DNA of 64,000 bases from an uncultured Bacteroidales bacterium (lineage in GTDB: Bacteria; Bacteroidota; Bacteroidia; Bacteroidales; UBA10428): the NCBI GenBank assembly GCA_964634105.1, contig CAZWIU010000001.1, forward strand, positions 16,949 to 80,948, in the 5' to 3' direction. Of the stretch, positions 16,937 to 32,294 are shown piece by piece. Position 1 is the stretch's first letter; each line of letters begins with the position of its first letter. The notes under the pieces were generated by a model. That model worked only from the letters and a program-made list of their open reading frames with translations. It ran no database searches and was not told the origin of the DNA. The translations under genes were made by a program, and so were the position numbers.

Positions 16937-18064
16937 CTATTTTATTACCCTGAATCCGAGAAGCATCAATCTTTTTCTGTCATTATCTGAAATATTAACC
17001 GTATCGATTGTGAAAGCGCTAAACTCTCTTCTTAACGGATAATTTTCACGAATTTTCTCAAAACTCTCCGGTACAGTCTTCAGCTTTCTTTCATCTTCAA
17101 GGTAATTGTATGTCTGCATTATTATCTCAGTAGCAATTTCCTGAAAATCTTTATTGAGGCCGTTACAGGATATTATCGGGTTTTCGGGTTCAGGTATTGT
17201 ATCAGGTTCCCAGTCATCAAGGCCAATCTTAAAAAAACGACTCAGTGCCTGAACCGACATCCTGGTTCCGTTGGCTTTACCATCGGCAGAATAACCAGCA
17301 ATATGCGGAGTTGCATAAAACACCGCATTCATAAGTTCCTGATCAATATTGGGTTCATCTTCCCATACATCAAGTATCACAGCAGAGGGAAATCCCAACT
17401 TCAGTGACTTTTTCAACTGTTCAGTATGAATAACCTCGCCACGGGATGAATTGATCAACAGGGTGCCCGGATTTATTTTTGCCAATACTTCTTCATCTAT
17501 CAGGTGAAAGGTTCTATCATTGCCCTCCATTGTGAGAGGAACATGCAGCGATATGATATCGGCTTCACGGAGAATACCCTGAAGTGAAATAAATCCGCAT
17601 GGACCTTCAGCTCTCTCTCTTGGAGGGTCATTTAATAGAACCTGCATTTCAAAAATTTCCGCCAGCTTAACAATTTTTCGGCCAACATTCCCGACTCCTA
17701 TCACTCCCATGACCCGGTCTCTTAGATCGATAGCATTTTTTTCAGCATAATGCAACAGACAAAAAGCAATATATTGCATGACCGATCCGGAATTGCATCC
17801 AGGCGCATTAGTCCAATAAATACCATGTTTATTGCAATAATCCGTATCGATATGATCGTATCCAATGGTAGCTGAGGCAATAAATTTTACGGAGGAACCC
17901 TCCAGCAGTCTTGCATCGCACTTTGTTCGGGTCCTGATGATGAGTGCATCAACACCTGTTAAAACATCGTTTGTGATTTCAGACCCACTTAAATATTCAA
18001 TATCCATATAAGGATCAAGGACCCCTTTTAAAAACGGAATCTTTTTATCTACAATAACTTTCAT
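16937..18064 (-). CDS. pdxB: 4-phosphoerythronate dehydrogenase
   Basis: 375 aa. D-2-hydroxyacid dehydrogenase fold (GVIGVGNVGRK) with the PdxB-type N-terminus and C-terminal dimerisation extension. Confidence 0.8.
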   Translation of the reverse strand: MKVIVDKKIPFLKGVLDPYMDIEYLSGSEITNDVLTGVDALIIRTRTKCDARLLEGSSVKFIASATIGYDHIDTDYCNKHGIYWTNAPGCNSGSVMQYIAFCLLHYAEKNAIDLRDRVMGVIGVGNVGRKIVKLAEIFEMQVLLNDPPRERAEGPCGFISLQGILREADIISLHVPLTMEGNDRTFHLIDEEVLAKINPGTLLINSSRGEVIHTEQLKKSLKLGFPSAVILDVWEDEPNIDQELMNAVFYATPHIAGYSADGKANGTRMSVQALSRFFKIGLDDWEPDTIPEPENPIISCNGLNKDFQEIATEIIMQTYNYLEDERKLKTVPESFEKIRENYPLRREFSAFTIDTVNISDNDRKRLMLLGFRVIK

Positions 18065-18859: not shown

Positions 18860-21800
18860 ATGACCTTCATGACTGATTCGATCATTCCTTTATTAGTAAT
18901 TAAAGCACTCTGGTTATCACATGTGCTGTTTACCCTCACCGGTTTTATCTTATCTTCAGTTATATACCTTTCAATACGATATTACCGGCACAGAAAATAC
19001 CGACTTATATACTCTACCACAGAAAGTATTCTTGGAGAAAGTGATCAGTTGAATATACTCATAAATAATATCCCTGACTGCGTTTATTTAAAAGATAATC
19101 TGAGTCGGTATATCTTATGCAATCAACGTTTCGTTAAATTATTGAAATCCGAAAGACCGGAGCAAATATATGGTAAAACTGATGCTGAAATTTATAAGAA
19201 TGAATCTGCCAATAAATATCTTGAAGAAGACCGTAAAATACTGAATGGTGAAGTTCCCATATTAACCAGAAAGCAGGAAAGTCAGAAAGGCAATGAAAGT
19301 AGAATTACCCTTACCACAAAAATTCCAATAAAAAATAAAAAAGGCAAGATTATAGGATTGATGGGTACAATAGCAGATGTCACAGAACATGAAAAAGCTG
19401 CACAACTTTTAGAAGAGAGAAACAACGCACTCGAAAAAGAAGAGACTCTCTTCAGGGCGTTGATGGATAACATGCCCGATACAATTTACATTAAGGATAC
19501 CGAATGCCGTTTCCTGGATGGCAATCCGACACAAGTAAATATAACAAAAGCCGGCACTCACGAAAACCTTTTAGGAAAGACCGACTTTGATTTTTATCCT
19601 AAAGATATTGCTGAGATCTTTTACAAAGATGATAAACAAGTACTGGAAACCGGAAAACCGGTAATCAATAAAGAAGAAATTGGTTTTGATGCTAATGGAA
19701 ATATCCTTGTAAAGTCTACCACCAAGGTTCCTTTCCGGGACAAGAACGGAAAGATTCTGGGTTTAGTTGGTATTGGCAGGGACATTACCAAACAAAAAGA
19801 AGCAGAGGAAAAACTAAAAGAACAAGCTCAACATCTGCAGGAAGTCAATGTGCTGCTGGAGGAACGGCAGGAAGAAATTAACCAGCAATCCGACGAATTA
19901 AGTTCTCAAAACAAAATCCTTGAAGAGGAAAGAAACCTGCTTAGGACTCTGCTCGATAGTCTTCCCGATTATATTTACCTGAAAGATACCGACAGCCGGT
20001 TTGTTACTGTTAATCGTAAATTGATGCAGGTCTTCAAGACTGATAACCTCGATGATGTCATTGGCAAATCGGAAAAAGATTTCTATCCTGCTGATTATGC
20101 CGAGAATTTCATCAAGGATGACAAGCATATACTCAAAACCGGCAGGGCTATTATTGATAAAGAAGAACCTGGAATTGATGAGCAGGGTAATTTTATTCAA
20201 CTCCTCACCTCAAAAGTTCCAGTAAAAGATCCGGATGGTAAAATTACTGGAATCATTGGTATTGCGCGTGATATTTCAGCAATCAAAGAAGCAGAGCTGA
20301 AACTTAAAGAGCAGGCCGATTACCTGAAAGAGATGAACGTTTTATTAGAGGAACGACAGGAAGAGATTCAACAGCAGTCGAGCGAACTTACATCGCAGAA
20401 TACTATTCTTGAAAACGAAAGAAATCTTCTCCGGACGCTTATTGATACACTTCCTGATTTCATCTATATTAAGGATAAGGAAAGCCGCTTCATCACTGCA
20501 AATCAAAAAATATTGCTTGTAATGAAAGCTCCAAATTGTCAGTATCTTGAAGGTAAAACTGACTTTGATTTTTATCCGAAACAAATTGCACAATTGTTCT
20601 ATAATGATGAGCAGCAGATTGTCAAAACCGGAAAACCTCTCATTAATAAAGAGGAAATCGGGTTCGATATTGAAGGCAACCAGCGTACAATTGCAACTAC
20701 TAAAGTACCCTATTTTGATGCAGATGGTAATATCATCGGAATTGTCGGTGTCGGAAGAGATATCACCGAAATGAAAGAATTTGAAAACATTCTTAAAAAG
20801 CAAGCTGCAGACCTTCAGGAGAACAATCGCCTGTTGGAAGAACGTCAGGAAGAAGTGCAAAAACAATCGGAAGCCTTAGCTGAACAGAATAAGATACTTG
20901 AAAATGAACGAAATCTGCTCCGTACACTTATTGATAATATGCCCGATTATATTTACATCAAAGATAAAGAAAGCCGCTTCCTCACTGTTAACAGCAGGTT
21001 GTTGCATGTGATGCATGCAAAGTCGCTGGATGAAATTGTAGGAAAAACTGATTTTGATTCAGCCCCCACCAAAGAAGCTGCTGAACAGTATTTCCAGGAT
21101 GAGCGCAGGATCATCTCTACGGGTAAACCTATTATCAATAAAGAGGAAATCGGATTTGATGAGAACGACCGGGAGCGGGTAATTTCGACGACAAAAGTAC
21201 CCTTCTATGATGCTGATGGCAATATTGCAGGTATCGTAGGTATTGGTCGTGATATAACCAAACAAAAGAATGCCGAAAGACAATTACGGGAACAGGCACA
21301 GAATCTTCAGGAAGTAAATGTAATTCTTGAGGAAAGACAGGAGAAAATTCAACAGCAGAGTGAAGAACTGAATCAGCAGGCCCAGCATCTTAAGAAAGCA
21401 AACATTCAGCTTGAACAGCTTAATGCCACAAAGAATAAATTCTTTTCAATTATTGCACACGATTTAAAAAATCCTTTCCAGGCAATTTTTGGTTTCTCGG
21501 AGCTGCTAATGCGTAATTATGGCGATTTTGATGATCCTCAAAAGATGGAATTACTGGGTATGATCAAGACTTCTTCTGAAAGTGCTTATAATTTGTTGGA
21601 GAATTTGTTACAATGGGCAAGAACTCAGACAGAACGTATTAAATACAGTCCCGCCGATATTGACCTCGGAGAACTGATTGAACAAAACATATCGCTTAGT
21701 CAGGGAAGTTCCGAAAACAAGCATATTTCACTCGTCTCACAGATTAATACCACCGCTAAAGCTTTTGCCGATAAAAACATGATCAACCTGGTCATTCGCA

Positions 21801-22123
21801 ATTTAATAAGTAATGCCATTAAATTTACTAACGATGGTGGTGTGGTAACCATTCAGTGCAGCCAGGATGAAAAAGATAAAAACCTCCTGAGTGTTTCAAT
21901 ATCTGATACAGGTATTGGAATTTCTCCCGATAATATCAAAAAGTTATTCCGCATCGATGAATATTTTTCTACCTCGGGGACTGCAGGTGAAGGAGGAACC
22001 GGTTTAGGACTTATTATCTGCAAAGAATTTGTTGAAAAAAACAAAGGTACCATAAAGGTTGAAAGTGAATTGGAAGTTGGAACAACATTTACTTTTACCC
22101 TGCCTAAATCAGGTTCAAAATAA
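18860..22123 (+). CDS. membrane-anchored sensor histidine kinase with five PAS modules
   Basis: 1087 aa. N-terminal TM segment, then five repeats of coiled coil plus PAS (..LPDxIYIKD..SRF...GKTDFDFYP...TTKVP..D..G.I.G..G.GRDIT), then HisKA (FFSIIAHDLKNP) and HATPase_c. Confidence 0.9.
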   Translation: MTFMTDSIIPLLVIKALWLSHVLFTLTGFILSSVIYLSIRYYRHRKYRLIYSTTESILGESDQLNILINNIPDCVYLKDNLSRYILCNQRFVKLLKSERPEQIYGKTDAEIYKNESANKYLEEDRKILNGEVPILTRKQESQKGNESRITLTTKIPIKNKKGKIIGLMGTIADVTEHEKAAQLLEERNNALEKEETLFRALMDNMPDTIYIKDTECRFLDGNPTQVNITKAGTHENLLGKTDFDFYPKDIAEIFYKDDKQVLETGKPVINKEEIGFDANGNILVKSTTKVPFRDKNGKILGLVGIGRDITKQKEAEEKLKEQAQHLQEVNVLLEERQEEINQQSDELSSQNKILEEERNLLRTLLDSLPDYIYLKDTDSRFVTVNRKLMQVFKTDNLDDVIGKSEKDFYPADYAENFIKDDKHILKTGRAIIDKEEPGIDEQGNFIQLLTSKVPVKDPDGKITGIIGIARDISAIKEAELKLKEQADYLKEMNVLLEERQEEIQQQSSELTSQNTILENERNLLRTLIDTLPDFIYIKDKESRFITANQKILLVMKAPNCQYLEGKTDFDFYPKQIAQLFYNDEQQIVKTGKPLINKEEIGFDIEGNQRTIATTKVPYFDADGNIIGIVGVGRDITEMKEFENILKKQAADLQENNRLLEERQEEVQKQSEALAEQNKILENERNLLRTLIDNMPDYIYIKDKESRFLTVNSRLLHVMHAKSLDEIVGKTDFDSAPTKEAAEQYFQDERRIISTGKPIINKEEIGFDENDRERVISTTKVPFYDADGNIAGIVGIGRDITKQKNAERQLREQAQNLQEVNVILEERQEKIQQQSEELNQQAQHLKKANIQLEQLNATKNKFFSIIAHDLKNPFQAIFGFSELLMRNYGDFDDPQKMELLGMIKTSSESAYNLLENLLQWARTQTERIKYSPADIDLGELIEQNISLSQGSSENKHISLVSQINTTAKAFADKNMINLVIRNLISNAIKFTNDGGVVTIQCSQDEKDKNLLSVSISDTGIGISPDNIKKLFRIDEYFSTSGTAGEGGTGLGLIICKEFVEKNKGTIKVESELEVGTTFTFTLPKSGSK

Positions 22124-22124
22124 T

Positions 22125-23459
22125 TCATTGCTTTCTTACAGCCTGTTGTTTTCCGTAAGCTGATCGGAACGGATCGATAATTCTCTCCAGCAATGAACGC
22201 TGATTAGTTATGACTTCAGCAATTCCGGGCATATTTTGCTGAAAGTTCAATTGAATTCCATAACTTGTAATCAGGAGTGAGCTATCCAGCGTCACTTCCG
22301 CTGCATACTGTTCGTTATTGGGGACCGATGAAATATTTGAAATTTTCCCGTTGACTACTCCAAATTCCATATAAGGATAATTATCAAAGCGTATGATCAC
22401 ATTGTGTCCTTCTTTGATTTTTCCTGCGCCGGCAGCCGGCAGCAAGATTCTGCCAAAAACTTCGCCCTGTTCAACAGGAAGGATTGTCAGCACGATATCG
22501 CCCTTTCCGACATATTGATTTTCACTCCAGATTTTCGTTAATGATACTTTCCCGCTAAAAGGTGATCTCAGAATATAATCCCGGTCCCATAATGATATCT
22601 GACCTTTAAGTCTCTCATAAGCCTCCTGAATACGTTGTGAGTATTGTCTGCCCTCATCCTCCTGCTTCAATTCAAGTTCGAGGATCTCCTGTTGCAGGTT
22701 TGATACTTCTATTTGAGCAGTGACAAGCGCTGTTTGTGTTTTTTTCCACTCATTTTTCTTATTCAGTTTCACGGTCTCTGATTTTTCCAGCTGAGCTGAA
22801 GAGATTATTTTCTCAGCAAACAGCGATGAGTCTCTCGAATATTGTTTCTCCGAAAGAATATAATCCTGATAGAGTATTTTTTCCTGGTCTTTAACTTTAT
22901 CGAGGTAGAGATCAAATTTTTTAAGTTCGGTTCTGACTGAATGAATTTTACGTTGATGATAATTTAATCGCAAAAAACCCGAATATTCCTGTAATTCTTT
23001 TAGTAACGAAGCATATGAATCCTGCATTTCCCCGAGCTTCATCTCACCTTTAAGATCGGCATGGATAAGCGAATCCAGATCAAAGGTTTCCCCTAATTTC
23101 GTTTCGAGCTCCTGTACATCGTTAAAATCGGCAGCTGATTCAAGGACAGCCAGGACCTGGTTCTCCCTTACTATCTCTTTATCTTTCACCTGGAAATATT
23201 TAATCCTGGCTGAGGTATTGGCTATCACATCAGCTGGCGGAGTTTTCGTTGTAAGTACTATTCGGGCCTGAATAATATCAGGGTACCGAAGCAGTGAAGC
23301 AACAATGACCAGTATTATCAATACAGCCATGACAGCCAGTGTGCCATTCCTTACGATCCACCTGGGTACCTGGCCAAGAATTTCTCTCAACTGTTCACTA
23401 CGAAGCTCAAGGCTTTCAGCCTTTTCCATATCGCTATCGGAAATTTTAATTCCCTGCAT
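22125..23459 (-). CDS. HlyD-family membrane-fusion/adaptor protein of the peptide exporter
   Basis: 444 aa. One N-terminal TM helix, a long coiled coil and a C-terminal barrel region. Its start overlaps the PCAT stop by 1 nt (TGATG). Confidence 0.85.
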   Translation of the reverse strand: MQGIKISDSDMEKAESLELRSEQLREILGQVPRWIVRNGTLAVMAVLIILVIVASLLRYPDIIQARIVLTTKTPPADVIANTSARIKYFQVKDKEIVRENQVLAVLESAADFNDVQELETKLGETFDLDSLIHADLKGEMKLGEMQDSYASLLKELQEYSGFLRLNYHQRKIHSVRTELKKFDLYLDKVKDQEKILYQDYILSEKQYSRDSSLFAEKIISSAQLEKSETVKLNKKNEWKKTQTALVTAQIEVSNLQQEILELELKQEDEGRQYSQRIQEAYERLKGQISLWDRDYILRSPFSGKVSLTKIWSENQYVGKGDIVLTILPVEQGEVFGRILLPAAGAGKIKEGHNVIIRFDNYPYMEFGVVNGKISNISSVPNNEQYAAEVTLDSSLLITSYGIQLNFQQNMPGIAEVITNQRSLLERIIDPFRSAYGKQQAVRKQ

Positions 23460-25675
23460 CAGGCACCAAGTTCAAGTTGATTTTTTACCAGCATATAATA
23501 CTTTCCCTTTCGGGCGGTTAGTTCATTATGTGTACCTGTTTCAATCAGCAAACCTTTTTCCAGCACGATGATCTGATCTGCATTCTTAACTGTGCTTAAC
23601 CTATGGGCAATGATCACAACTGTTCTTCCCCTATAAAACTCACCAAGATTCTCCAGAATCTCACGTTCATTATTTGCATCGAGGGCATTTGTTGCTTCGT
23701 CAAAAAGAAGGAAAGCAGGATCTTTATAAATAGCTCTCGCTATCAGTATCCTCTGTTTTTGGCCCTGGCTTAATCCTAATCCGTCAGGTCCTAACCGTGA
23801 ATTGAACCCAAGAGGCATCTCATCACAAATTGTATGGACATTGGCCATACGTGCTGCATAGTAAAGTTTCTCCTTATCGATATTTTCATCAGAGAGAGCA
23901 ATATTTCTGGCTATACTATCGGTAAATAAAAATCCGTCCTGAAGAACAACCCCGCAGGACTTTCTCCAGTATGAAGGACTTATGTGTTCTAAGTTCTGGT
24001 CTCCGATAAAGATATTCCCTGCAACCGGCGAATAAAACTTCAATAAAAGTTTCAATAATGTTGTTTTGCCGCTTCCGCTGGTACCAACAATGGCTGTTAC
24101 TTTGCTATGGGGTATTGTAAATGAGATATCTTTCAATGCATATGGCGATTTCGGCCCTTCATATTGAAAAGAAATATTTTTAATAATTATATCACGTTGA
24201 CTGAAATCAAGTCCCGAAATCAACTGTTTTCTTTCTTCTTCTTCGTTCTCCCTGTCATGAATTTCCGCCAGCCTGTCGAGACTAATACGCGCATCCTGTG
24301 ATGCATGAAAGAAATCAATCATCATATCGATGGGGCCGGAAAGCTGGCCTATTACATAGGATATTGCTACCAGCGTTCCTAATGTTAACTGTCCTTTGAA
24401 GACCAATAATGCAGCAAAGAAGACTATCAGAATATCTTTATATTGATTGAAAATCAACGCCCCAGCTCTTTGCTTTTGAAATAACGACAGCCCACTGATA
24501 TTGATCCGGAATAACCTGGCCTGAATATCTTCCCATTCCCATCGTTTTCTTTTCTCACAATTATTCAGTTTTATTTCATGCATGCCGCTCAACAATTGAA
24601 TTAATGTACTCTGATTACTCGACAATTGGGCAAATTTTTTATCATCCAGCTCTTTTCTTTTACGCATAAATCTCAATGTCCACAATAAGTATAGGATGCT
24701 CCCGAATAAGAAGACGAGGAATATTTTCCAGCTAAATACAATGAGAACTATTCCCATCAGAACAACTGAAAATATTGAATGAAAAAGGTTAATGACAGTA
24801 TTCGATAAAAACAATTCAATTCTTTTATGATCGGCCACACGTTGCAACAGGTCGCCCCTGTTTTTACTTTCAAAAAAGGATACAGGCAATCGCATCAGCT
24901 TGATCAGGAAATCGGAGATTAAATGGATATTTATCCGCGAGCCCAGGTAAAGAATTATCCAGTTCCTGATAAACTCCAGGGAAAACCTGCTTGTAACTAG
25001 TACCAGTTGGGCAATCAGAATGGTGTAAATTAAGGTAAGATTCGGTATTAAAACGCCTTTATCAACCACCGTTTGAAACAGGAAAGGAAGAATGATCTGG
25101 ATAATTGCAACGAGAATAAGTCCCAGCACAACCTGGACAATTAGTCTGTTATAACCACGAAGGTATCTGGTTAAAAAGCTTATTTTACCCCTATTGAAAT
25201 GTTCATCCTCGGATCTATAAAACTCAGGGGTAGTTTCCAATTGAAGACATATTCCCAACTTTTCACCATCTTCTACAGTTGAGGCCCATCCTTTAAGGAA
25301 ATCAGAGTTGGAATAGCTGATTTCTCCAAACGCTGGGTCTACAACATATACTACCTTATTCGTGATTTTCCTGATTATAATAAAATGTTCCTGGTTCCAA
25401 TGAGCTATGCAGGGTAAAGGAATATCAGTTTTCAACTGTTCAAATGACAGTTTAAGTCCGCGCGTCCTGAATCCAATTGCTTCAGCTGCTTCACTGATAC
25501 CCAATAGTGAAACACCTTCATGGCTGATATAACAGCGTTGCCTAAATGACTCGATGGAATAGTTCTTCCCATAGTATTTGGCTATCATCCTAAGACATGC
25601 CGGACCACAATCGTTGGAGTCGTGCTGAATAAATACAGGGAATCGTGACATGAAATAACAAGAATAGATCGACAC
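23459..25675 (-). CDS. peptidase-C39-domain ABC transporter (PCAT; exports and cleaves double-glycine-leader peptides)
   Basis: 738 aa. The N-terminal C39 domain keeps its catalytic Cys (QHDSNDCGPACLRM) and the downstream His/Asp region. It also has a 6-TM ABC domain, Walker A GTSGSGKTT, the signature LSQGQKQR and Walker B LLFDEAT. The true start may be M9 at 25651. Confidence 0.9.
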   Translation of the reverse strand: MSIYSCYFMSRFPVFIQHDSNDCGPACLRMIAKYYGKNYSIESFRQRCYISHEGVSLLGISEAAEAIGFRTRGLKLSFEQLKTDIPLPCIAHWNQEHFIIIRKITNKVVYVVDPAFGEISYSNSDFLKGWASTVEDGEKLGICLQLETTPEFYRSEDEHFNRGKISFLTRYLRGYNRLIVQVVLGLILVAIIQIILPFLFQTVVDKGVLIPNLTLIYTILIAQLVLVTSRFSLEFIRNWIILYLGSRINIHLISDFLIKLMRLPVSFFESKNRGDLLQRVADHKRIELFLSNTVINLFHSIFSVVLMGIVLIVFSWKIFLVFLFGSILYLLWTLRFMRKRKELDDKKFAQLSSNQSTLIQLLSGMHEIKLNNCEKRKRWEWEDIQARLFRINISGLSLFQKQRAGALIFNQYKDILIVFFAALLVFKGQLTLGTLVAISYVIGQLSGPIDMMIDFFHASQDARISLDRLAEIHDRENEEEERKQLISGLDFSQRDIIIKNISFQYEGPKSPYALKDISFTIPHSKVTAIVGTSGSGKTTLLKLLLKFYSPVAGNIFIGDQNLEHISPSYWRKSCGVVLQDGFLFTDSIARNIALSDENIDKEKLYYAARMANVHTICDEMPLGFNSRLGPDGLGLSQGQKQRILIARAIYKDPAFLLFDEATNALDANNEREILENLGEFYRGRTVVIIAHRLSTVKNADQIIVLEKGLLIETGTHNELTARKGKYYMLVKNQLELGA

Positions 25676-25837
25676 ACGAATCTAGCAGGTTTTCCTTAAA
25701 AAATCCAGTGTTTTAAATATTTATGAAATATAAATTAGATTTTTTCAATTGTCGGACCCAGTGGGTTATTAAAAATCATGTGTATGCAAAATCTACTTAA
25801 AATGAATGTAACAGTTGATATGTGATCACTGAAGAGG

Positions 25838-26755
25838 TTAAAATACAACGGAGCGGCGTATTGTCTTCCTCAGACTGAATTTGTCTTCGGTATCTTTCAT
25901 TTTCGTGATCACTTTAGATCTTAAGACTGGTCGGTATGGAATTGTGAAATAAAATGTTGTTCCTTTCGTTTTCACTGAATTATACCAGATTCTGCCTTTC
26001 ATCAGTTCAACAAGCTTTTTTGCCAGGCTGAGTCCTAATCCAAGTCCTTCCTGTGAATTATCCGATTCATCAAGTTTAGCGAAACTTCGATACATAATCT
26101 GTTCTTTACCTTCCAGACCACCAATTCCAGAATCGGTAATAAAAAATTCAATCTCCTGTTCCTTTACTCCAAATCCAATCTCCACTACTCCCTGAGAAGT
26201 AAATTTGAAAGCATTTGAAATCAGGTTACTAAGTACCTGGGTTAAACGGTATGCATCACAATATACATACAGAGGTTTTAATTCTTCAGGTACCGATACT
26301 AAAAATGCAATGTTCTTTTCTGAAATATGTTTCTGAATTGAATAATAGGAATGTATCTCCTGTAAAAGATCATTAATATTGCATTCATCATTTGAAAGTT
26401 GAAGTATGCCTGCCTCAATGATCGATGCTTCAATGATATTATCCATCTTTCTTAAAAACTCGCGACTGCTTTCACGAATTTGAGCAATGTAAGTGTTTTT
26501 CTCCTGATCATTAATGCTGTTCATTTGTATCAGGTCGGAGAATCCAACTATTGCATTTAAAGGAGTACGAATTTCATGGTAAAGGTTTTTGAGAAAGATT
26601 GATTTAGCCCTTTCTACACTGTCTGTTTTTTCATTCAAAAGTTGCTCCAGGAGCTTTACCCGTTTCTTCAGGTAATCATATTCAGCTCCCTCCCTCTTCA
26701 GGAAAAGGCTTCCGAACTTATAAAAACCCCTTTTTATGACGTGTAGTAATTTCAT
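25838..26755 (-). CDS. soluble histidine kinase lacking a recognisable sensor or TM domain
   Basis: 305 aa. Short coiled coil, then HisKA (LYHEIRTPLNAI) and HATPase_c (N-box NLISNAFKFT, G-boxes DSGIG, GLGLGL). Confidence 0.85.
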   Translation of the reverse strand: MKLLHVIKRGFYKFGSLFLKREGAEYDYLKKRVKLLEQLLNEKTDSVERAKSIFLKNLYHEIRTPLNAIVGFSDLIQMNSINDQEKNTYIAQIRESSREFLRKMDNIIEASIIEAGILQLSNDECNINDLLQEIHSYYSIQKHISEKNIAFLVSVPEELKPLYVYCDAYRLTQVLSNLISNAFKFTSQGVVEIGFGVKEQEIEFFITDSGIGGLEGKEQIMYRSFAKLDESDNSQEGLGLGLSLAKKLVELMKGRIWYNSVKTKGTTFYFTIPYRPVLRSKVITKMKDTEDKFSLRKTIRRSVVF

Positions 26756-26868
26756 CCGATAAGAGGAATAATTGAGTCGAAATCTTATTTATCGTAATAA
26801 AAAGAGTCCCAGGTATTGCTACCTGGTCTCTTCAAAAACCCCGTGTAAATGAGAATCTTCCGTAAAGT

Positions 26869-27636
26869 CTAATTCAGTTTTTTCAATACTTTATGCGCCT
26901 CCTTTTTGTAGTAGCCATTATTGGCATCAATACTTTCAAAGATATCTTTGGCTTTATCAATTTCTCCGGTTTTTATATAGCAAAGACCCAGGTACCATTG
27001 TGCAGATTCAATGAACACATTTTCTTTATGATCGATTATTTTTCTGAAATTTTCATTTGCTTTGGTATAATGGTTAAGCTCCATATGTGAAATGCCGGAA
27101 TATAAATTAAGCCCTATCCGGGTTTGATCGCTGTCAAGTATCTTCTCGAACAGTGTAATTGCTTTTGAGTATTCTTTATTCTCGTAAAAGAACATCGCTG
27201 TTCGCAAATCACTATCGACAATATCTTCAGCAGTTCTGAAACTAATATTTATCTCTGCCGGTTGATAATATTCAGCAAAGAGATCGGCTGTTGATACTTT
27301 ATCTTTTGAAGAAGTAAACCATAATATCATCAGAATAGCCAAAGTGGCTGCTACTGTCCCGGCAACATACATGTATCTTCGGATGGTTGATGTCGGAATA
27401 TTCAGTGACCTAACCCATGGTCTGTATATATTCGAGTGAATTTCTTCCAACTGCGTGTGTAGCATCATTGTTTCGTTATCAGAAATGACTTCAAAAATCC
27501 TTTTCTGGAATTGTAATTCTGCCTCAAGCTCCTTATTGTCTTTGAGTTCTTTCTCAAACCAGATTTTCTCGTCGGTTTCCATAACACCATCAAGATATCT
27601 GTCGATATACCTGGAATAGTTAATTTCTTGATTCAT
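26869..27636 (-). CDS. single-pass membrane protein: anti-sigma-factor-like N-terminus plus extracytoplasmic TPR domain
   Basis: 255 aa. The N-terminus IDRYLDGVMETDEKIWFEKELKDNKELEAELQFQ resembles anti-sigma N-domains but lacks the zinc ligands. TM helix YVAGTVAATLAILMILWF is followed by TPR-like repeats. Confidence 0.55.
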   Translation of the reverse strand: MNQEINYSRYIDRYLDGVMETDEKIWFEKELKDNKELEAELQFQKRIFEVISDNETMMLHTQLEEIHSNIYRPWVRSLNIPTSTIRRYMYVAGTVAATLAILMILWFTSSKDKVSTADLFAEYYQPAEINISFRTAEDIVDSDLRTAMFFYENKEYSKAITLFEKILDSDQTRIGLNLYSGISHMELNHYTKANENFRKIIDHKENVFIESAQWYLGLCYIKTGEIDKAKDIFESIDANNGYYKKEAHKVLKKLN

Positions 27637-27878
27637 AGTGTAAAAAATTTACAAACCATTTATAATATCCAGAAAAGCCAACTCCTTTTCTGAACAAACA
27701 ATTAAAATTAATGACGGATCAAAAAAAATTATAAGATTTTCGTACAACCCGGATTTAATATCCGGTAGATACATCTATCATTAGCCCTATTAATTCAATT
27801 CAATAATCAATAACTATACTCAATCAATATGATGTAGCGTTTGGCAGGACTTCCATGCCAAAACAATATTCCATTATT

Positions 27879-28009
27879 AAAAAAAAGGAGGGCAGGAAAA
27901 AGATCTATCGGAAAGGAATAGATTTTGATGGACTTTAGTAGAAATAAAAGGAAACTACAAAGTAATGTGCCAAACCATCTATTATCCTGCCTGGGGATAC
28001 TCCTTTTTT
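27879..28009 (-). terminator. about 130-nt multi-hairpin element closed by a long-range helix and followed by a U-run (putative attenuator/terminator after the peptide gene)
   Basis: Plus-strand aaaaaaggag (27881-27890) pairs with ctcctttttt (28000-28009), and ggcagg (27891-27896) pairs with cctgcc (27986-27991). Two internal hairpins: atctat/atagat near 27903-27923, and ctttagtag (27933-27941) / ctacaaag (27955-27962). Confidence 0.45.
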
Positions 28010-28038
28010 ATTTTAACTCAACATTCTGAGCTTTTCTC

Positions 28039-28161
28039 TTAAATCTTTTTAAATGGATCAACGATGTCTCCTCCGCCTCTCACCTTTCTCATTTCGTTTA
28101 TTGTTAATACCTGGTAATTGCTTTTTTCTGATTTTTCAAGATTAACTTTATACGTTTTCAT
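28039..28161 (-). CDS. double-glycine-leader peptide precursor (40 aa; predicted 10-aa mature core); not in the ORF track
   Basis: My minus-strand translation is MKTYKVNLEKSEKSNYQVLTINEMRKVRGG|GDIVDPFKKI, stop at 28039-28041. The leader fits the GG-leader pattern (L-x-x-x-E-M-x-x-V-x-G-G). The gene lies upstream of, and co-oriented with, a C39 ABC exporter. Confidence 0.7.
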   Translation of the reverse strand: MKTYKVNLEKSEKSNYQVLTINEMRKVRGGGDIVDPFKKI

Positions 28162-28344
28162 TTTACGGGGTTTTAATGTTTCGTTCTGATATATGTTCCA
28201 TTCTCATTAAAAATGTCACCACCCTTTTGACTTTTTTTTCAAAAAAATTTTTAATTATTTCATAAAATATTTTATGCCAGCATTTTACGTTCTTTTCAGT
28301 TTCAGTATAATTTTCTATTTTAGTTGCCGCGAGACCAGCATCAA

Positions 28345-31170
28345 ATGATCTTCATAAAAAAAACATCGGCTATACTAATATGCGGGATTTGTATTGCGGA
28401 GGGGTTATTTGCAGAAATTAAACCTGTTAATCCTGCTGTCGATTCTGCAAAACTACTTTTAGAGATGTCAAACAATCTGGCAAATGCTGGAGACTATATC
28501 CAATCACTCCAAGCGACCAAAGCATTACACTATTTCAGGATGCGTAATTATGAAGCCAGTGACTCTAGGATTCTTGCCAGTTATGCAAACCTTATAAATG
28601 CCTACATGCTAATTTCGGATTATGATTCAGTTGAATATTTTCGAGACCTGGCCGAGCAATTCAGACTTAAGTATAAGATTGAAAAAGGACTTGAATTAAG
28701 CAGCTTATACTCCAGTATCGGGTTGTTAATGCGAAATAAAGGCGATTACCTTGAAGCAAAAAGCTACTATATGCAGGCTGAGAAATGCCTTATAAATTCG
28801 GATAAAAAGATCGATCCTGAGGACATGGCAATATTGTATATCCGGATAGCCAATATTGAACGATTACTTCACAATTATGAAGAAGCCCTTGGCTATTTTA
28901 AAAAAAGCATTGATTATTTAAGTACGCAGCAGAAAACGCAGTTCAGAATTACCAGTCTGACAGGAATTGCGTTGATCTATTCCGAAATGAAAAACTATTC
29001 TCAGAGCCTTGCTTATAAAAAAAAGGCGTTAAGACTGGCTCAGCAGGATTCGATTAACAGTAGTTTGCAATTGGCTGTGCTATATAATAATATCGGACAG
29101 GATTATATGCTTGTTAATGAACTGAGAGATGCAGAGAAGAATCTCCTGAAAGCACTTGCCCTGTTTAATTCGATGGAATACAGAGGCACGTATAGCGCAA
29201 GCGCTTATGAGAATCTGGGCCTTTTATCGGAAAAGAAAGGCGACCACCTGTCTGCACTTGCATACTATCAGAAAGCTATTCAGGAAATAGCTCCTGAGTT
29301 CCATCCGGTTGATAATATCAGTTGTCCTTTGTCCGATGAAATATATCCCACTCCTGCATTGTTGCGAATCCTGAAATCCAAAGCCAAATGCCTGACTACA
29401 ATGTACCTTTACAGCCTCAAAGCTGCCTATCTCGATGCAGCATTGAACACGTATAAAACAGGAATTACGGTTGTTGATGAGCTACGTAACAGCTATCAAA
29501 GTTATGAAAGTAAACTGCTGATCGCTAAGGATGAATATGATATTTACCGATCGGCACTTCCCCTTGCGAATACAGGATACATTAACACCCTCAATGCTCG
29601 CTACCTGCAAATTGCTTTCGAGGTATCTGAAAAATCGAAATCTGCTTTATTACTGGCTAGTCTCCGTGAATTGGATGCCCGTAAAATGGGAGGTATTCCT
29701 GAAGAGTTATTACGAGAGGAAAAGAATATTTCGAGGCTGATTAATCAGTATAAAAATACTATATACGAAGAACAACAGCTTGCCAAACCTGACCTTAATA
29801 AAATCGGAACATTGCAAAGTTCCCTCTTCGAAGCACAACAGAAACGCAATAAATTGATCGAGACCTTTGAAAAAGAGTACCCGGCATATTATTCACTAAA
29901 AATACAGAATACTGTTCCCGGGGTAAAGAACATACAGCATTCTATTCCGGGAAATACTTCCCTCATTGAATATTCAATCGGAGATACAATGCTTTATATA
30001 TTCGTTCTTACAAAGAGCCGTTTTCACCTTATTACGGAGCGTATCGACAGTGCTTTCTTCAGATTAATTTCAGCCTATGTTGACCAATTTCACAGGTTCG
30101 ATTTCAGTAAACAATCGTATGAAGATTATTCATCGTTTTGCTCAACCAGCATATCGCTGTATAATAAGTTAATTAAGCCTGTGGTCTCTTTTCTCAGGGG
30201 CGACAACCTGCTCATAGTTCCCGATGGTATTCTGTCATATATTCCATTTGAAACATTGATACAAGAATTACCATCGAAAAATTCATTATACTATAAATCA
30301 CTCAACTATCTATTAAATGACTATACTATCTCCTACTCATACTCATCGTCATTTCTTCTGGAAGTTGACAAAACCGGTAATAAAAGAAAAACCAGTAAGC
30401 TGTTAGCCTTTGCCCCGGAATACAAACCTGGTTTTGATGCAGGTGCATATATTGGTAATCATAACACCCGACAAAATCTCAAGGAAGCACTCTATCCTAT
30501 CCCGGGGGTGATTGAAGAGGTTAAGTCGATCAGCAATTTAATAGCAAGCGATGTATTTACAGGAATAGAAGCTACCGAGAGTAACTTCAGAAAAATTGCG
30601 AACAATTACGATATTCTTCATTTAGCGATGCATGCAGTAATCGATAACAAAAATCCCCTTTTCTCAAAGCTTGTATTCACACTTTCTGATGATTCGCTGG
30701 AAGATGGACTCTTAAATACATACGAGATCTTTAATATGCAATTAAATGCCCGGATGGTTGTTTTAAGTGCGTGTAACACTGGTCAGGGTGACTATAGTCA
30801 GGGAGAAGGAGTAATGAGCCTTGCCAGGGGATTTGTATATGCAGGTTCTCCCAGCTTAATAATGACCATGTGGGAGGTCGAAGATAAATCGGGTAGTATG
30901 CTGATGAAATCTTTTTATGAAAATCTGCTGAAAGGTCAGCCAAAAGCAGAAGCGCTGCGAAATGCCAAAATCAGGTACCTGCATGAAGCCCGGGCTGAAA
31001 ATCTTCATCCATTTTTCTGGTCATCGTTTGTAGCGATGGGAAATACCAAACCCCTTTTCATAAATAAAAAGTTATATTATTATCTGGCAGCAGGCATTAT
31101 ATTAGGGTTGATCACTATTCTGCTTATGCGAAAACGATACCATAGACTCAGGAAAGACCGGATCGCTTGA
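28345..31170 (+). CDS. secreted TPR-CHAT (caspase-fold) protease with a C-terminal membrane anchor
   Basis: Signal-peptide-like N-terminus MIFIKKTSAILICGICIAEGLFA (ATG at 28345, inside the tracked TTG ORF). About 300 aa of TPR repeats. The CHAT domain keeps ILHLAMHA (His) and VVLSACNTG (Cys), plus HPFFWSSFVAMGN. C-terminal TM helix LAAGIILGLITILLM is followed by a basic tail. Confidence 0.9.
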   Translation: MIFIKKTSAILICGICIAEGLFAEIKPVNPAVDSAKLLLEMSNNLANAGDYIQSLQATKALHYFRMRNYEASDSRILASYANLINAYMLISDYDSVEYFRDLAEQFRLKYKIEKGLELSSLYSSIGLLMRNKGDYLEAKSYYMQAEKCLINSDKKIDPEDMAILYIRIANIERLLHNYEEALGYFKKSIDYLSTQQKTQFRITSLTGIALIYSEMKNYSQSLAYKKKALRLAQQDSINSSLQLAVLYNNIGQDYMLVNELRDAEKNLLKALALFNSMEYRGTYSASAYENLGLLSEKKGDHLSALAYYQKAIQEIAPEFHPVDNISCPLSDEIYPTPALLRILKSKAKCLTTMYLYSLKAAYLDAALNTYKTGITVVDELRNSYQSYESKLLIAKDEYDIYRSALPLANTGYINTLNARYLQIAFEVSEKSKSALLLASLRELDARKMGGIPEELLREEKNISRLINQYKNTIYEEQQLAKPDLNKIGTLQSSLFEAQQKRNKLIETFEKEYPAYYSLKIQNTVPGVKNIQHSIPGNTSLIEYSIGDTMLYIFVLTKSRFHLITERIDSAFFRLISAYVDQFHRFDFSKQSYEDYSSFCSTSISLYNKLIKPVVSFLRGDNLLIVPDGILSYIPFETLIQELPSKNSLYYKSLNYLLNDYTISYSYSSSFLLEVDKTGNKRKTSKLLAFAPEYKPGFDAGAYIGNHNTRQNLKEALYPIPGVIEEVKSISNLIASDVFTGIEATESNFRKIANNYDILHLAMHAVIDNKNPLFSKLVFTLSDDSLEDGLLNTYEIFNMQLNARMVVLSACNTGQGDYSQGEGVMSLARGFVYAGSPSLIMTMWEVEDKSGSMLMKSFYENLLKGQPKAEALRNAKIRYLHEARAENLHPFFWSSFVAMGNTKPLFINKKLYYYLAAGIILGLITILLMRKRYHRLRKDRIA

Positions 31171-31729
31171 TTCTTTGATATTCCGGATCCTCTTTAATCA
31201 TCTTTATCAGATATTCTTTACACTTATACTTTTTATTACGGATTATTTTTTCATTCTTATAGCCCATTTCAATGGCGATCTGTTCATAGGATACACCATC
31301 GGATATTAACCGGAGCACTTTCTGACACTCGACGCCAAGCTTTGTAAAATATTTCCGGAATAACCGCATGTCAATTTCCTCTTCCACAAGGGAATCGGAA
31401 GGTAAGTAGGAATTTTCAGGCTCTTCGATCTGTAAAATATTCCGCTCATGAGTTGCCCTGCTTCTTAATATTTTCAACCAGACCAAACGGGCCACACCAT
31501 ATAAATAAGCTTCAAACCCCGTTTTGATCGCGAACGAGTTTTGAGAGATTTGTTTAAATACGATGATTATTGATTCCTGAAATACGTCTTTTGAATCATC
31601 CTGCGATCCACCATTGCTCATAACATAATATCGGACAACCGGATATAATTCCTTATAGATTAAGGTGAGGATTTTATTATCCCGCTTTTGAATGCCTTCA
31701 ATAATTTGCCCAAGGGTAAGTTTTTTCAC
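31148..31729 (-). CDS. ECF-type sigma-70 family RNA polymerase sigma factor
   Basis: 193 aa with region 2 (DVFQESIIIVF..., AYLYGVARLVWLK) and a region 4 HTH (VLRLISDGVSYEQIAIEMG). Its 3' end overlaps the 3' end of the CHAT gene by 23 bp, convergently. Confidence 0.85.
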   Translation of the reverse strand: MKKLTLGQIIEGIQKRDNKILTLIYKELYPVVRYYVMSNGGSQDDSKDVFQESIIIVFKQISQNSFAIKTGFEAYLYGVARLVWLKILRSRATHERNILQIEEPENSYLPSDSLVEEEIDMRLFRKYFTKLGVECQKVLRLISDGVSYEQIAIEMGYKNEKIIRNKKYKCKEYLIKMIKEDPEYQRIKRSGLS

Positions 31730-32294
31730 TGTTCTTCAGAGTGTTTCGTAAATTGAAATTCATGCCTTTATATACTACATAGCTATTTTGCAGTGCAATG
31801 AAATGATTCGAACGAAACATCACACAGTAAGCTATCTCAAAGATATACAAAAATGCTTATCCTGCATTATTCTTTGATTAATTGAAGTATATAGTAGATA
31901 CTTGAAGTAATACTTAATTTATAGTATGATTATATTATTCTCAATATGAAAGTGTTATCGCCTGGCTTTGAGAAGCTATTTCTCATGCGAAAGCAGTAAC
32001 TTCATGGTTAACGTATTTAATCTCCCTTTGGCTATGCTGAGATCCGGATCGGATCAATCATAACTGTTATTAAAGTCAACACCAGCAGAGCCTATATGAT
32101 CTGTCCAGCAAGCTGATGAATCCGGACCTGTTATTTTCACCGCTTTACGGTTGCCCACCAAATAACCATGCTGGCTACATGTTAAATTTTTGTAAAACAA
32201 TATTTTAATTGACGAATTGATTGATAAAGGAAAATGTTTTTCATATATTAGATACTGTATGCAGACAACATTCGTTGTTTTATAAAACAGTATT

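Follow-up and report, generated by a model that had tools for sequence, protein, structure and literature searches.

Related regulatory systems

The closest characterized analogue of the locus described here is DdvA/DdvS of Myxococcus xanthus, which consists of an anti-sigma factor with a periplasmic TPR-CHAT region and a sigma factor of the extracytoplasmic function (ECF) type (PMC11506125, PDB 8rot). According to its authors, DdvA stands alone among characterized anti-sigma factors in having a TPR-CHAT region, and fused DdvA-like proteins were found only in Myxococcota and in one Comamonas (PMC11506125). The locus itself lies in 64,000 nucleotides of DNA from an uncultured Bacteroidales bacterium (GenBank assembly GCA_964634105.1, contig CAZWIU010000001.1, forward-strand positions 16,949 to 80,948); this whole 64-kb stretch is called the window, and positions are counted from its first letter. 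It encodes an ECF-type sigma factor (31148-31729, minus strand), an anti-sigma-like protein with one transmembrane (TM) segment and TPR repeats (TM-TPR; 26869-27636, minus), a TPR-CHAT protease (28324-31170, plus), a precursor peptide with a double-glycine (GG) leader (28039-28161, minus), a soluble histidine kinase (HK; 25838-26755, minus), a C39-peptidase ATP-binding cassette (ABC) exporter (PCAT; 23459-25675, minus) and a HlyD-type periplasmic adaptor (22125-23459, minus). An earlier, sequence-only reading of this DNA had proposed a peptide-signaling module without a characterized counterpart, a statement that has to be corrected in part, as DdvA/DdvS is a close characterized analogue (PMC11506125).

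The two systems share an ECF sigma factor and a periplasmic TPR-CHAT region with a His/Cys dyad, and the single-pass anti-sigma factor of DdvA/DdvS, whose cytoplasmic domain is small and helical, has a candidate counterpart of the same predicted build in the window; for the TPR-CHAT region of DdvA, a first cut before RseP-type intramembrane proteolysis is a proposal. The structural model of the window CHAT protein matches 8rot_A with an E value of 1.5e-15, although no sequence similarity between DdvA and the window proteins is detectable. In the window, however, protease (28324-31170) and anti-sigma-like protein (26869-27636) are two proteins, the former with a C-terminal TM segment of its own, and no zinc motif of the CHCC kind is present in the N-terminal domain of the latter. 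The window system also comes with a GG peptide, an exporter and a kinase, and the module is proposed to regulate itself, whereas DdvA controls a CBASS (cyclic oligonucleotide-based antiphage signaling system)-CRISPR island. No single window polypeptide joins a zinc anti-sigma domain, a TM segment and a periplasmic TPR-CHAT region. By analogy, the module plausibly works like DdvA with the protease acting in trans.

Other parts of the locus recall further known systems. In the ComABCDE and BlpABCHR systems of streptococci, a C39 PCAT, assisted by an accessory protein, cuts and exports a GG-leader pheromone, and the pheromone gene, whose core is hypervariable, belongs to an autoinduced operon with its sensor. 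The window has a pheromone-like GG peptide, a PCAT and, as proposed below, autoinduction, but the sensor of the streptococci is a polytopic histidine kinase whose response regulator is linked, whereas here a soluble kinase without a response regulator accompanies an ECF sigma/anti-sigma pair and a CHAT switch in a diderm host. Short secreted peptides without modifications are the ligands of the RRNPP receptors (Rap, NprR, PlcR, PrgX), which are TPR superhelices. One of them, Rap in complex with CSF (4gyo, TMt 0.65), is similar to the TPR part of the CHAT model, but RRNPP receptors are cytoplasmic proteins of Firmicutes, need peptide import and have no protease or sigma output. In the RseA/sigmaE system, DegS, a membrane-anchored site-1 protease activated by the PDZ-bound C-termini of outer-membrane proteins, acts before RseP. 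A peptide-activated, anchored site-1 protease cutting a single-pass anti-sigma factor is also what is proposed here, with the difference that the candidate is a clan-CD CHAT protease with a TPR sensor arm and that the peptide would be self-made and exported.

In the type III-E Craspase (Cas7-11, the TPR-CHAT protein Csx29, Csx30 and RpoE), cleavage of a partner is linked to an ECF-type sigma factor (PMC10028731). The CHAT fold of the window matches the Csx29-type structures 7y84_C and 8eey_B; Craspase, however, is cytoplasmic, RNA-activated and CRISPR-associated, whereas the window protease is predicted to be periplasmic. Neither Cas7-11/gRAMP nor Csx30/Csx31 was found in the window, which has no array and no specific PADLOC match, and the neighbors are housekeeping genes. 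A review describes CHAT proteins in ECF54 genetic contexts (PMC8999054), and a survey of ribosomally synthesized and post-translationally modified peptides (RiPPs) of Bacteroidales describes GG peptides that occur with PCATs and, now and then, with TPR or HK genes (PMC10352776), neither of them with the present gene combination. No published description of the module was found in open-access papers and preprints.

Conservation of the module in Bacteroidales

The seven open reading frames (ORFs), their domains and their overlaps were all verified as the sequence-only reading had described them. The PCAT and HlyD genes share 1 nt (TGATG), and between the CHAT and sigma genes the convergent overlap is 23 nt. 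For the synteny counts, the window proteins were BLASTed against the ORFs of 81 non-redundant loci, with denominators that vary per feature; the 80 fetched loci all come from metagenome-assembled genomes, nearly all labeled Bacteroidales or Bacteroidota and a few with other labels. Individual loci are cited by L numbers.

The TM-TPR proteins form a tight family of about 250 aa, with 120 clusters and 285 relatives among species-representative genomes. A kinase-like gene lies directly downstream of the TM-TPR gene in 66 of 74 loci, a divergent TPR-CHAT gene within 2 kb upstream of it in 45 of 52, and an ECF sigma gene in the locus in 45 of 48. Upstream of the kinase-coupled TM-TPR gene, within 1.3 kb, one to three tandem GG-leader mini-ORFs on the same strand are present in 53 of 60 loci, compared with 0.04 expected per such interval from the background rate in the same loci (regex scan). 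The module genes are thus syntenic in dozens of species-level Bacteroidales genomes, and the lack of synteny by which the sequence-only reading would have fallen was not found. It is very likely that the module is one functional unit.

The exporter is the variable part. A PCAT gene is present in 33/59 loci, and just about half of the loci have PCAT/HlyD as direct neighbors, which corrects the sequence-only reading. The pair lies several kilobases away in L040, L043, L044, L048, L057, L061 and L074 and on the far side of the sigma gene in L058 and L065, where the PCAT gene is also found in L079 and L082; L004, L039 and L064 lack PCAT/HlyD and retain the peptide gene without an adjacent exporter.

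Within the closest clade, gene order and housekeeping flanks are identical and the TM-TPR proteins are only 37-60% identical to that of the window, which points to vertical inheritance of a core-genome locus. Minimal modules of sigma, TM-TPR and CHAT genes without a peptide occur in L049 and L073. Another clade (L003, L019, L020, L024, L025, L046) retains the kinase gene and, about 330 nt upstream of the TM-TPR gene, an ECF-like promoter; in L003, the TM-TPR and kinase genes are set between ribosomal protein genes.

The TM-TPR protein as a candidate anti-sigma factor

The sigma factor (193 aa) consists of regions 2 and 4 only, as expected for ECF (group 4) factors of about 190 aa, and exceeds the thresholds of both Sigma70_r2 (PF04542, 29.7 bits, cut-off 24) and TIGR02937 (55.7 bits over residues 24-167, cut-off 42.9). 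Its presumed partner, the TM-TPR protein (255 aa), is predicted to have a three-helix cytoplasmic N-domain, a TM segment at about residues 89-107 and then a periplasmic TPR domain. An AlphaFold2 (AF2) model of residues 1-80 gave three helices with a predicted local distance difference test score (pLDDT) of 83. The two genes are not directly adjacent in the window, where the CHAT and peptide genes stand between them.

The evidence that ties them together comes from paralogues. In seven loci with five independent sequences (L049, L073, L078/L080/L085, L081 and L084), the sigma gene stands directly 5' of a TM-TPR gene and overlaps it, without a kinase or peptide gene. Furthermore, nine loci (L054, L060-L063, L070, L074, L076, L077, L083) carry two TM-TPR paralogues, one sigma-coupled and the other coupled to peptide and kinase; the order there is sigma-TMTPR1, CHAT on the minus strand, and peptide-TMTPR2. 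Sigma- and kinase-coupled proteins have the same full architecture, including the N-terminal motif IEKYLxGELxxxExxxFExxLxxDxxLxxE, which we take to be typical of anti-sigma N-domains. In a neighbor-joining tree, the sigma-coupled proteins are basal and paraphyletic, with the kinase-coupled ones nested inside.

Because paralogues are directly coupled to a sigma gene, it is reasonably likely that the TM-TPR proteins are a family of anti-sigma factors, and the anti-sigma-like character assigned to the window protein gains support from these sigma-coupled relatives of the same architecture. The family would not be of the zinc-binding (ZAS) type, since its alignment has no Cys or His at the positions corresponding to the H-x3-C-x2-C/CHCC motif within residues 1-75. 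Searching the PDB with the N-domain profile returned weak matches to Nif11 (E 0.0014) and HigB-2, which were judged to be motif-level noise. On the periplasmic side, the juxtamembrane residue R134 (codon 27235-27237, minus strand), which follows a conserved YYxP, is invariant in 87/87 members, sigma- and kinase-coupled, and is a plausible candidate cleavage site, as the P1 residue for a clan-CD protease.

The TPR-CHAT protease

The protease gene (28324-31170, plus strand) encodes 948 aa with a CHAT domain (PF12770, 1.2e-63), and translation probably starts at the ATG at 28345. About 50 orthologues share a hydrophobic N-terminus, a C-terminal TM segment with a basic tail, and the motifs HLAMH and LSAC; H759, H763 and C810 are invariant in the ortholog alignment. 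From this conserved N-terminus, TM segment, basic tail and set of His/Cys motifs, the protein is predicted to be a periplasmic enzyme that is held at the inner membrane and has kept its catalytic residues. Its AF2 model (pLDDT 86, predicted template modeling score 0.83) has as top PDB fold matches human separase, Craspase Csx29 and Myxococcus DdvA, with E values from 1e-16 to 1e-15. Dyad and separase/Craspase-like fold place the protein among the clan-CD CHAT proteases with a TPR arm. When the CHAT domain was compared with PDB by sequence and by profile, no relative of solved structure came up; fold search alone found relatives.

The regions of the module evolve at different rates. Within the closest clade, mean pairwise identity is 0.64-0.67 for the PCAT, 0.51 both for the CHAT domain and for the periplasmic domain of the TM-TPR protein, and 0.26 for the N-terminal TPR arm of the CHAT protein. 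As the fastest-evolving folded region of the module, this arm is the best candidate for the receptor of the hypervariable peptide. That the CHAT protein serves as the site-1 protease of the anti-sigma factor has a little short of an even chance.

Related pairs occur outside the Bacteroidales loci. In Balneola (CP051255.1; L106 6001-9982), a related CHAT gene converges with a gene for a 247-aa protein with an N-terminal helical part, a TM segment and TPRs, and in an acidobacterial locus (L108) a distant TPR-CHAT gene stands beside genes for ECF sigma factors and Ser/Thr kinases; CHAT/ECF coupling may be widespread. The link between CHAT and anti-sigma factor appears to predate the peptide, given the peptide-less modules of L049 and L073 and the Balneola pair.

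The GG-leader peptide and its exporter

The 40-aa window precursor has a leader, MKTYKVNLEKSEKSNYQVLTINEMRKVRGG, ending in ...VRGG, and a 10-aa core, GDIVDPFKKI. On its own, the window peptide matches no curated family above the cut-off; its status comes from 60 orthologous GG-leader ORFs. The leaders share the pattern MK...(L/E)xxxEMxxI(R/K)GG, and for some of those from orthologues there are weak matches to two GG-leader models, TIGR01847 and TIGR04149. Core length ranges from 9 to 33 aa (median 17), and the cores are rich in Asp (18%), Pro (14%) and Gly (11%); all but 1 of 61 are free of Cys, and 89% have a net negative charge. They are conserved inside clades and unrelated across clades, as exemplified by GKIPPPPPDFE, ...DEDILLPDPEP... 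and GDGDPxDDDLWPP.

The exporter has the parts expected for such a substrate. The PCAT gene product combines Peptidase_C39 (6.8e-37), ABC_membrane and ABC_tran domains; of the 133 positions of the C39 profile, 2-123 are matched, and the Cys and His motifs ...NDCGPAC... and ...EHFIII... are intact. With the HlyD_3 domain protein encoded next to it and the family of GG-leader ORFs, the locus thus contains what PCAT-dependent export of a GG-leader peptide requires, the cleavage of the substrate being predicted.

Class II bacteriocins and RiPPs would call for a cationic or Cys-containing core of at least about 20 aa and an immunity or modification gene, none of which was found at the locus, and the compact operon has no space for a maturase or immunity gene. 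With these genes absent and with cores that are short, Pro-rich, negatively charged and devoid of Cys, the peptide is ill-suited to the role of a bacteriocin or RiPP product, as the sequence-only reading had argued for the window peptide, and its features fit a pheromone.

Cys-rich GG-leader peptides are encoded downstream of the module in three related loci: L061 (15298-15453 and 16751-16924), L074 (16006-16383) and L076 (12965-13096). They adjoin the displaced PCAT genes in L061 and L074, and no PCAT was detected in L076. These peptides look like bacteriocins or RiPPs, and the exporter in these genomes may serve more than one peptide class.

The ECF-type promoter-like motif and the structured spacer

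A promoter-like motif, GGTGACATTT-N10-TGGAAC, lies at 28195-28220 on the minus strand, 33 nt upstream of the ATG of the peptide gene, and is the single occurrence in the window, where 0.01 would be expected. ECF factors are expected to have a cognate, often autoregulatory promoter with an AAC-type -35 element and a spacing of about 16 nt; the motif (GTGAC-ATTT ... GGAAC), whose geometry is ECF-like, is kept in front of the peptide operon. More than 40 loci have variants particular to their clade at this place, among them GGTAACGTTT...TTGACT, TGTCACGTTT...TGTACC and GGTCACCTTTT...CGGAAT. An exact-pattern scan of metagenomes gave 17 matches, in 7/17 of which a GG peptide begins at +45-49 nt; the five of those seven with enough downstream sequence have the TM-TPR and kinase genes in 5/5 and a PCAT gene in 4/5.

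The same type of motif stands directly upstream of the sigma gene in the canonical sigma-TMTPR operons, for example GGGTAACCTTTT...TGACATTAATA in L049, and this is independent support because ECF autoregulation is expected there. In the clade of the window, the sigma gene has instead a Bacteroidetes housekeeping-type -7 box, TATCTTTG (TAnnTTTG). It is therefore likely, judging from these motifs, that an ECF-dependent promoter of the ECF type drives the peptide operon, and the ECF circuit that had been suggested for the locus is strengthened by a conserved promoter of this type before the peptide gene. The simplest reading is that an ancestral autoregulatory promoter of the sigma/anti-sigma operon now serves the unit of peptide, anti-sigma and kinase genes, in some cases with the exporter, and so forms a feedback loop.

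The leader of the sigma gene (31742-31845, minus strand) carries, after the -7 box, an invariant 8-nt inverted repeat, TGTTTCGT ... ACGAAACA, with arms 60-80 nt apart, which is kept in six related loci without covariation. It could form a long-range RNA stem near the start codon or represent two DNA half-sites.

The spacer between the peptide and TM-TPR genes is also structured. Directly 3' of the peptide stop codon, fold prediction and alignment identified a long terminator-like hairpin (27879-28009, minus strand) with the arms GGCAGGA / TCCTGCC, an outer AAAAGGAG / CTCCTTTT stem and a T-run after it. In most loci the stem is GGCGAGATA/TATCTCGCC, with several other compensatory variants across more than 20 loci. 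Standard pairs make up 90.5% of the alignment cells, whereas slid controls give 39-64%; among 500 shuffles, 0-1 reached the observed values. The loop motif TGGTTTGGCAC is conserved as TGGTTT(TAAC)GGCAC, and the whole element is duplicated in some loci (L004, L022, L039, L064). A second, small conserved hairpin (27748-27768, minus strand; CTACCGG-loop-CCGGG) in the leader of the TM-TPR gene shows the compensatory changes CCGG / CTGG-CCAG / CTGAC-GTCAG in 17 loci, and a third, terminator-like hairpin lies between the TM-TPR and kinase genes (26800-26826, minus strand) according to a consensus scan only.

The pairing statistics against controls and the compensatory changes bear out the structured spacer proposed by the sequence-only reading. 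Rfam gave no match, either for the whole window at the gathering threshold or for the spacer at E<=1. The spacer hairpins are probably a terminator/attenuator that sets the ratio of the peptide transcript to the downstream genes, and the long one is a candidate for a new cis-regulatory RNA or small-RNA element. Two other explanations of its loop motif were discarded. As a small ORF (MVLTAHNF... in L001 and L004), the window copy stops after 7 codons and that of L028 is without an ATG; as a sigma-54 promoter with TGGCAC for the -24 box, it shows no conserved TTGC at -12, judged by eye.

A 41-aa ORF at 27649-27774 (minus strand), directly upstream of the TM-TPR gene, is called in public assemblies. 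It is probably not a gene, since it overlaps the conserved small hairpin and no conservation of the ORF was seen in related loci.

The kinase-like protein

The kinase (HisKA and HATPase_c domains) is soluble and sensor-less, as the sequence-only reading had stated: it has no hydrophobic segment (maximum KD19 0.78), no TM segment and no sensor domain. In the window and its clade, none of the H, N, G1 and G2 boxes is disrupted. The window protein may be a transcriptionally controlled output kinase. An active kinase as a general feature of the module, however, did not hold. The N and G boxes are lost and the H-box is kept in L027, L030, L031, L033, L054, L055, L056, L060, L061, L063, L072, L074, L076, L077 and L083, and the phospho-acceptor His is replaced by Arg in L058, L065 and L071. 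Among the two-paralogue loci, most kinases have lost N, G1 and G2 and kept the H-box; none was detected in L062, and that of L070 is altered differently.

No gene for a receiver-domain (REC) protein is linked to the module in 85 loci (CheY phmmer search), so that the locus holds no two-component system in the sense of a histidine kinase with its cognate receiver protein. Because the catalytic boxes are lost in several clades and no receiver gene is linked, the conserved role of the protein is probably an interaction or phosphotransfer through its dimerization and histidine phosphotransfer (DHp) domain.

A proposed split switch and its alternatives

The reading that we prefer, though tentatively and at somewhat under an even chance, is a split DdvA-like switch of sigma factor, anti-sigma factor and CHAT protease that has acquired an autoinducing exported peptide. 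In the model that we infer, the sigma factor would be made from its housekeeping-type promoter and held at the membrane by the TM-TPR protein. Basal output of the ECF-type promoter (28195-28220) would yield the precursor, which the PCAT would cut after GG, exporting the 10-aa core together with HlyD. Once accumulated, the peptide would be bound in the periplasm, likeliest by the rapidly evolving TPR arm of the CHAT protein, and the activated protease would clip the periplasmic part of the anti-sigma factor, with the bond after R134 as the candidate site; intramembrane proteolysis would then release the sigma factor. Peptide sensing by a TPR domain and cleavage of the anti-sigma-like protein by CHAT had been put forward by the sequence-only reading and stay proposals. 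The freed sigma factor would drive the unit of peptide, anti-sigma, kinase and exporter genes, so that peptide and exporter would feed back positively and the anti-sigma factor made from the same unit negatively, with the sensor-less kinase as a possible output to an unlinked response regulator. The full chain as peptide quorum sensing in a Gram-negative bacterium, from an acidic Pro-rich peptide through the CHAT TPR arm, a cut of the anti-sigma factor probably after R134 and the freed sigma factor to autoinduction and a kinase output, is somewhat unlikely.

Several observations weigh against the split switch with its autoinducing peptide. The sole PDB fold match of the TM-TPR N-domain model is RslA (3hug_B, bound to domain 4 of sigma-L), at a non-significant E of 7.7, and no anti-sigma Pfam model matched the N-domain. 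In the two-paralogue loci the peptide-linked TM-TPR copy differs from the sigma-coupled one, and because these loci separate the two, the window protein could serve the kinase rather than the sigma factor. PCAT/HlyD is missing from about 40% of loci; in the clade of L003, L019, L020, L024, L025 and L046, no GG mini-ORF was found, and within 10 kb in L003 and L019, which have enough flank, neither a sigma nor a CHAT gene is present. Several clades have a degenerate kinase, and the terminator-like hairpins that separate the peptide, TM-TPR and kinase genes count against assuming co-transcription. As to the promoter, the regex for the locus scan was derived from the very sequences scanned, the remaining metagenome matches appeared random and yielded no extra regulon members, and a search allowing up to 3 mismatches gave one match only in the window, at the module itself.

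One alternative takes the peptide as a product: the sigma/anti-sigma/CHAT switch would respond to something else in the periplasm, for instance a foreign protein or damage to the envelope, and induce a small anionic, Pro-rich peptide with an extracellular role, for example against competitors, in metal binding or in surface modification. The peptide-less modules of L049 and L073 imply a switch with its own input, and a peptide gene placed first behind an ECF-type promoter and followed by a strong terminator-like hairpin is a layout typical of product genes with high expression; in some related loci, additional Cys-rich GG peptides close to a PCAT agree with it. However, such very short cores (10 aa in the window), which carry no Cys, are neutral or anionic and come without a gene for a maturase or for immunity, are unlike known class II bacteriocins or RiPPs, the peptide gene persists without an adjacent exporter (L004, L039, L064), and the locus is a vertically inherited part of the core genome beside dnaA and nusB, so this explanation is regarded as unlikely. 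A different division of labor would make the TM-TPR and kinase-like proteins a separate sensor, whose TPR domain binds the peptide and whose N-domain controls the soluble DHp protein and, through it, an unlinked response regulator, while the sigma factor is controlled independently, by the CHAT protease or another anti-sigma factor. This would account for the TM-TPR and kinase-like genes being the tightest pair (66/74), which persists without nearby sigma or CHAT genes, for the split between sigma-coupled and peptide/HK-coupled copies in the two-paralogue loci, and for the DHp/H-box being the conserved part of the kinase; orphan kinase-response regulator pairs that talk to an ECF sigma factor are known in Bacteroidota (PorY-PorX-SigP, PMC4800418). 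But the window has one TM-TPR protein and no other anti-sigma candidate for its sigma factor, kinase-coupled copies retain the full sigma-coupled N-motif, the operon still has an ECF-type promoter, no locus has a linked REC protein, and the phospho-acceptor His is replaced in some clades; a separate sensor is likewise unlikely.

A role in anti-phage defense or abortive infection, on the pattern of Craspase or DdvA and with the sigma factor freed for defense genes through CHAT proteolysis, is highly improbable. The fold does resemble Csx29 and DdvA, and the sigma factor has a weak, sub-threshold match to the type III-E RpoE-like family (E 0.004); DdvA/DdvS, moreover, controls a CBASS-CRISPR island (PMC11506125). 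PADLOC, however, reported only a generic TPR model and no CRISPR-like array is present, the housekeeping flanks near dnaA are conserved across genera, and the sole promoter copy drives the module itself.

Genomic setting and neighboring genes

The module is located about 10 kb from dnaA, and its housekeeping neighbors encode PFK, a PdxB-like dehydrogenase, NusB, YajC, CoaE and a DUF3276 protein. The 64-kb window contains no tRNA genes and no CRISPR-like arrays, and PADLOC found no defense family in it, only the generic TPR model.

Converging on the HlyD gene is a gene for a membrane-anchored multi-PAS histidine kinase (18860-22123, plus strand) of 1087 aa, with an N-terminal TM segment, five PAS modules joined by near-identical coiled coils (EERQEEIQQQSxEL...) and no receiver domain. 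It stays beside the module throughout the closest clade, even in loci without PCAT/HlyD, and a functional tie to the module is uncertain. On the other side, a non-coding gap of 565 bp (31730-32294) separates the sigma gene from a conserved gene for a 242-aa hypothetical protein. The feoAB iron-transport genes take the place of this gap in L001 and are not there in L004; in the other loci of the close clade, the gap is of similar size.

Possible implications for peptide signaling in Bacteroidota

Peptide autoinducers are seen as a speciality of Gram-positive bacteria, and cell-cell signaling in the Bacteroidota, an ecologically dominant group, is poorly understood. If the chain from peptide through CHAT protease to anti-sigma factor is true, its signaling logic would be new: a CHAT protease acting in trans as the site-1 protease of an ECF anti-sigma factor, a function so far proposed only in cis and for one Myxococcus protein. 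The module would then stand for widespread peptide signaling in Bacteroidales, and a bacterial caspase-fold protease would have both a natural substrate and a natural activator. It would also offer orthogonal parts (peptide, protease, anti-sigma factor, sigma factor and promoter) with many natural specificities, as well as two candidate new cis-regulatory RNA elements. Since the locus belongs to the core genome near oriC in its lineage, the module probably controls a basic behavior of these bacteria rather than an accessory trait.

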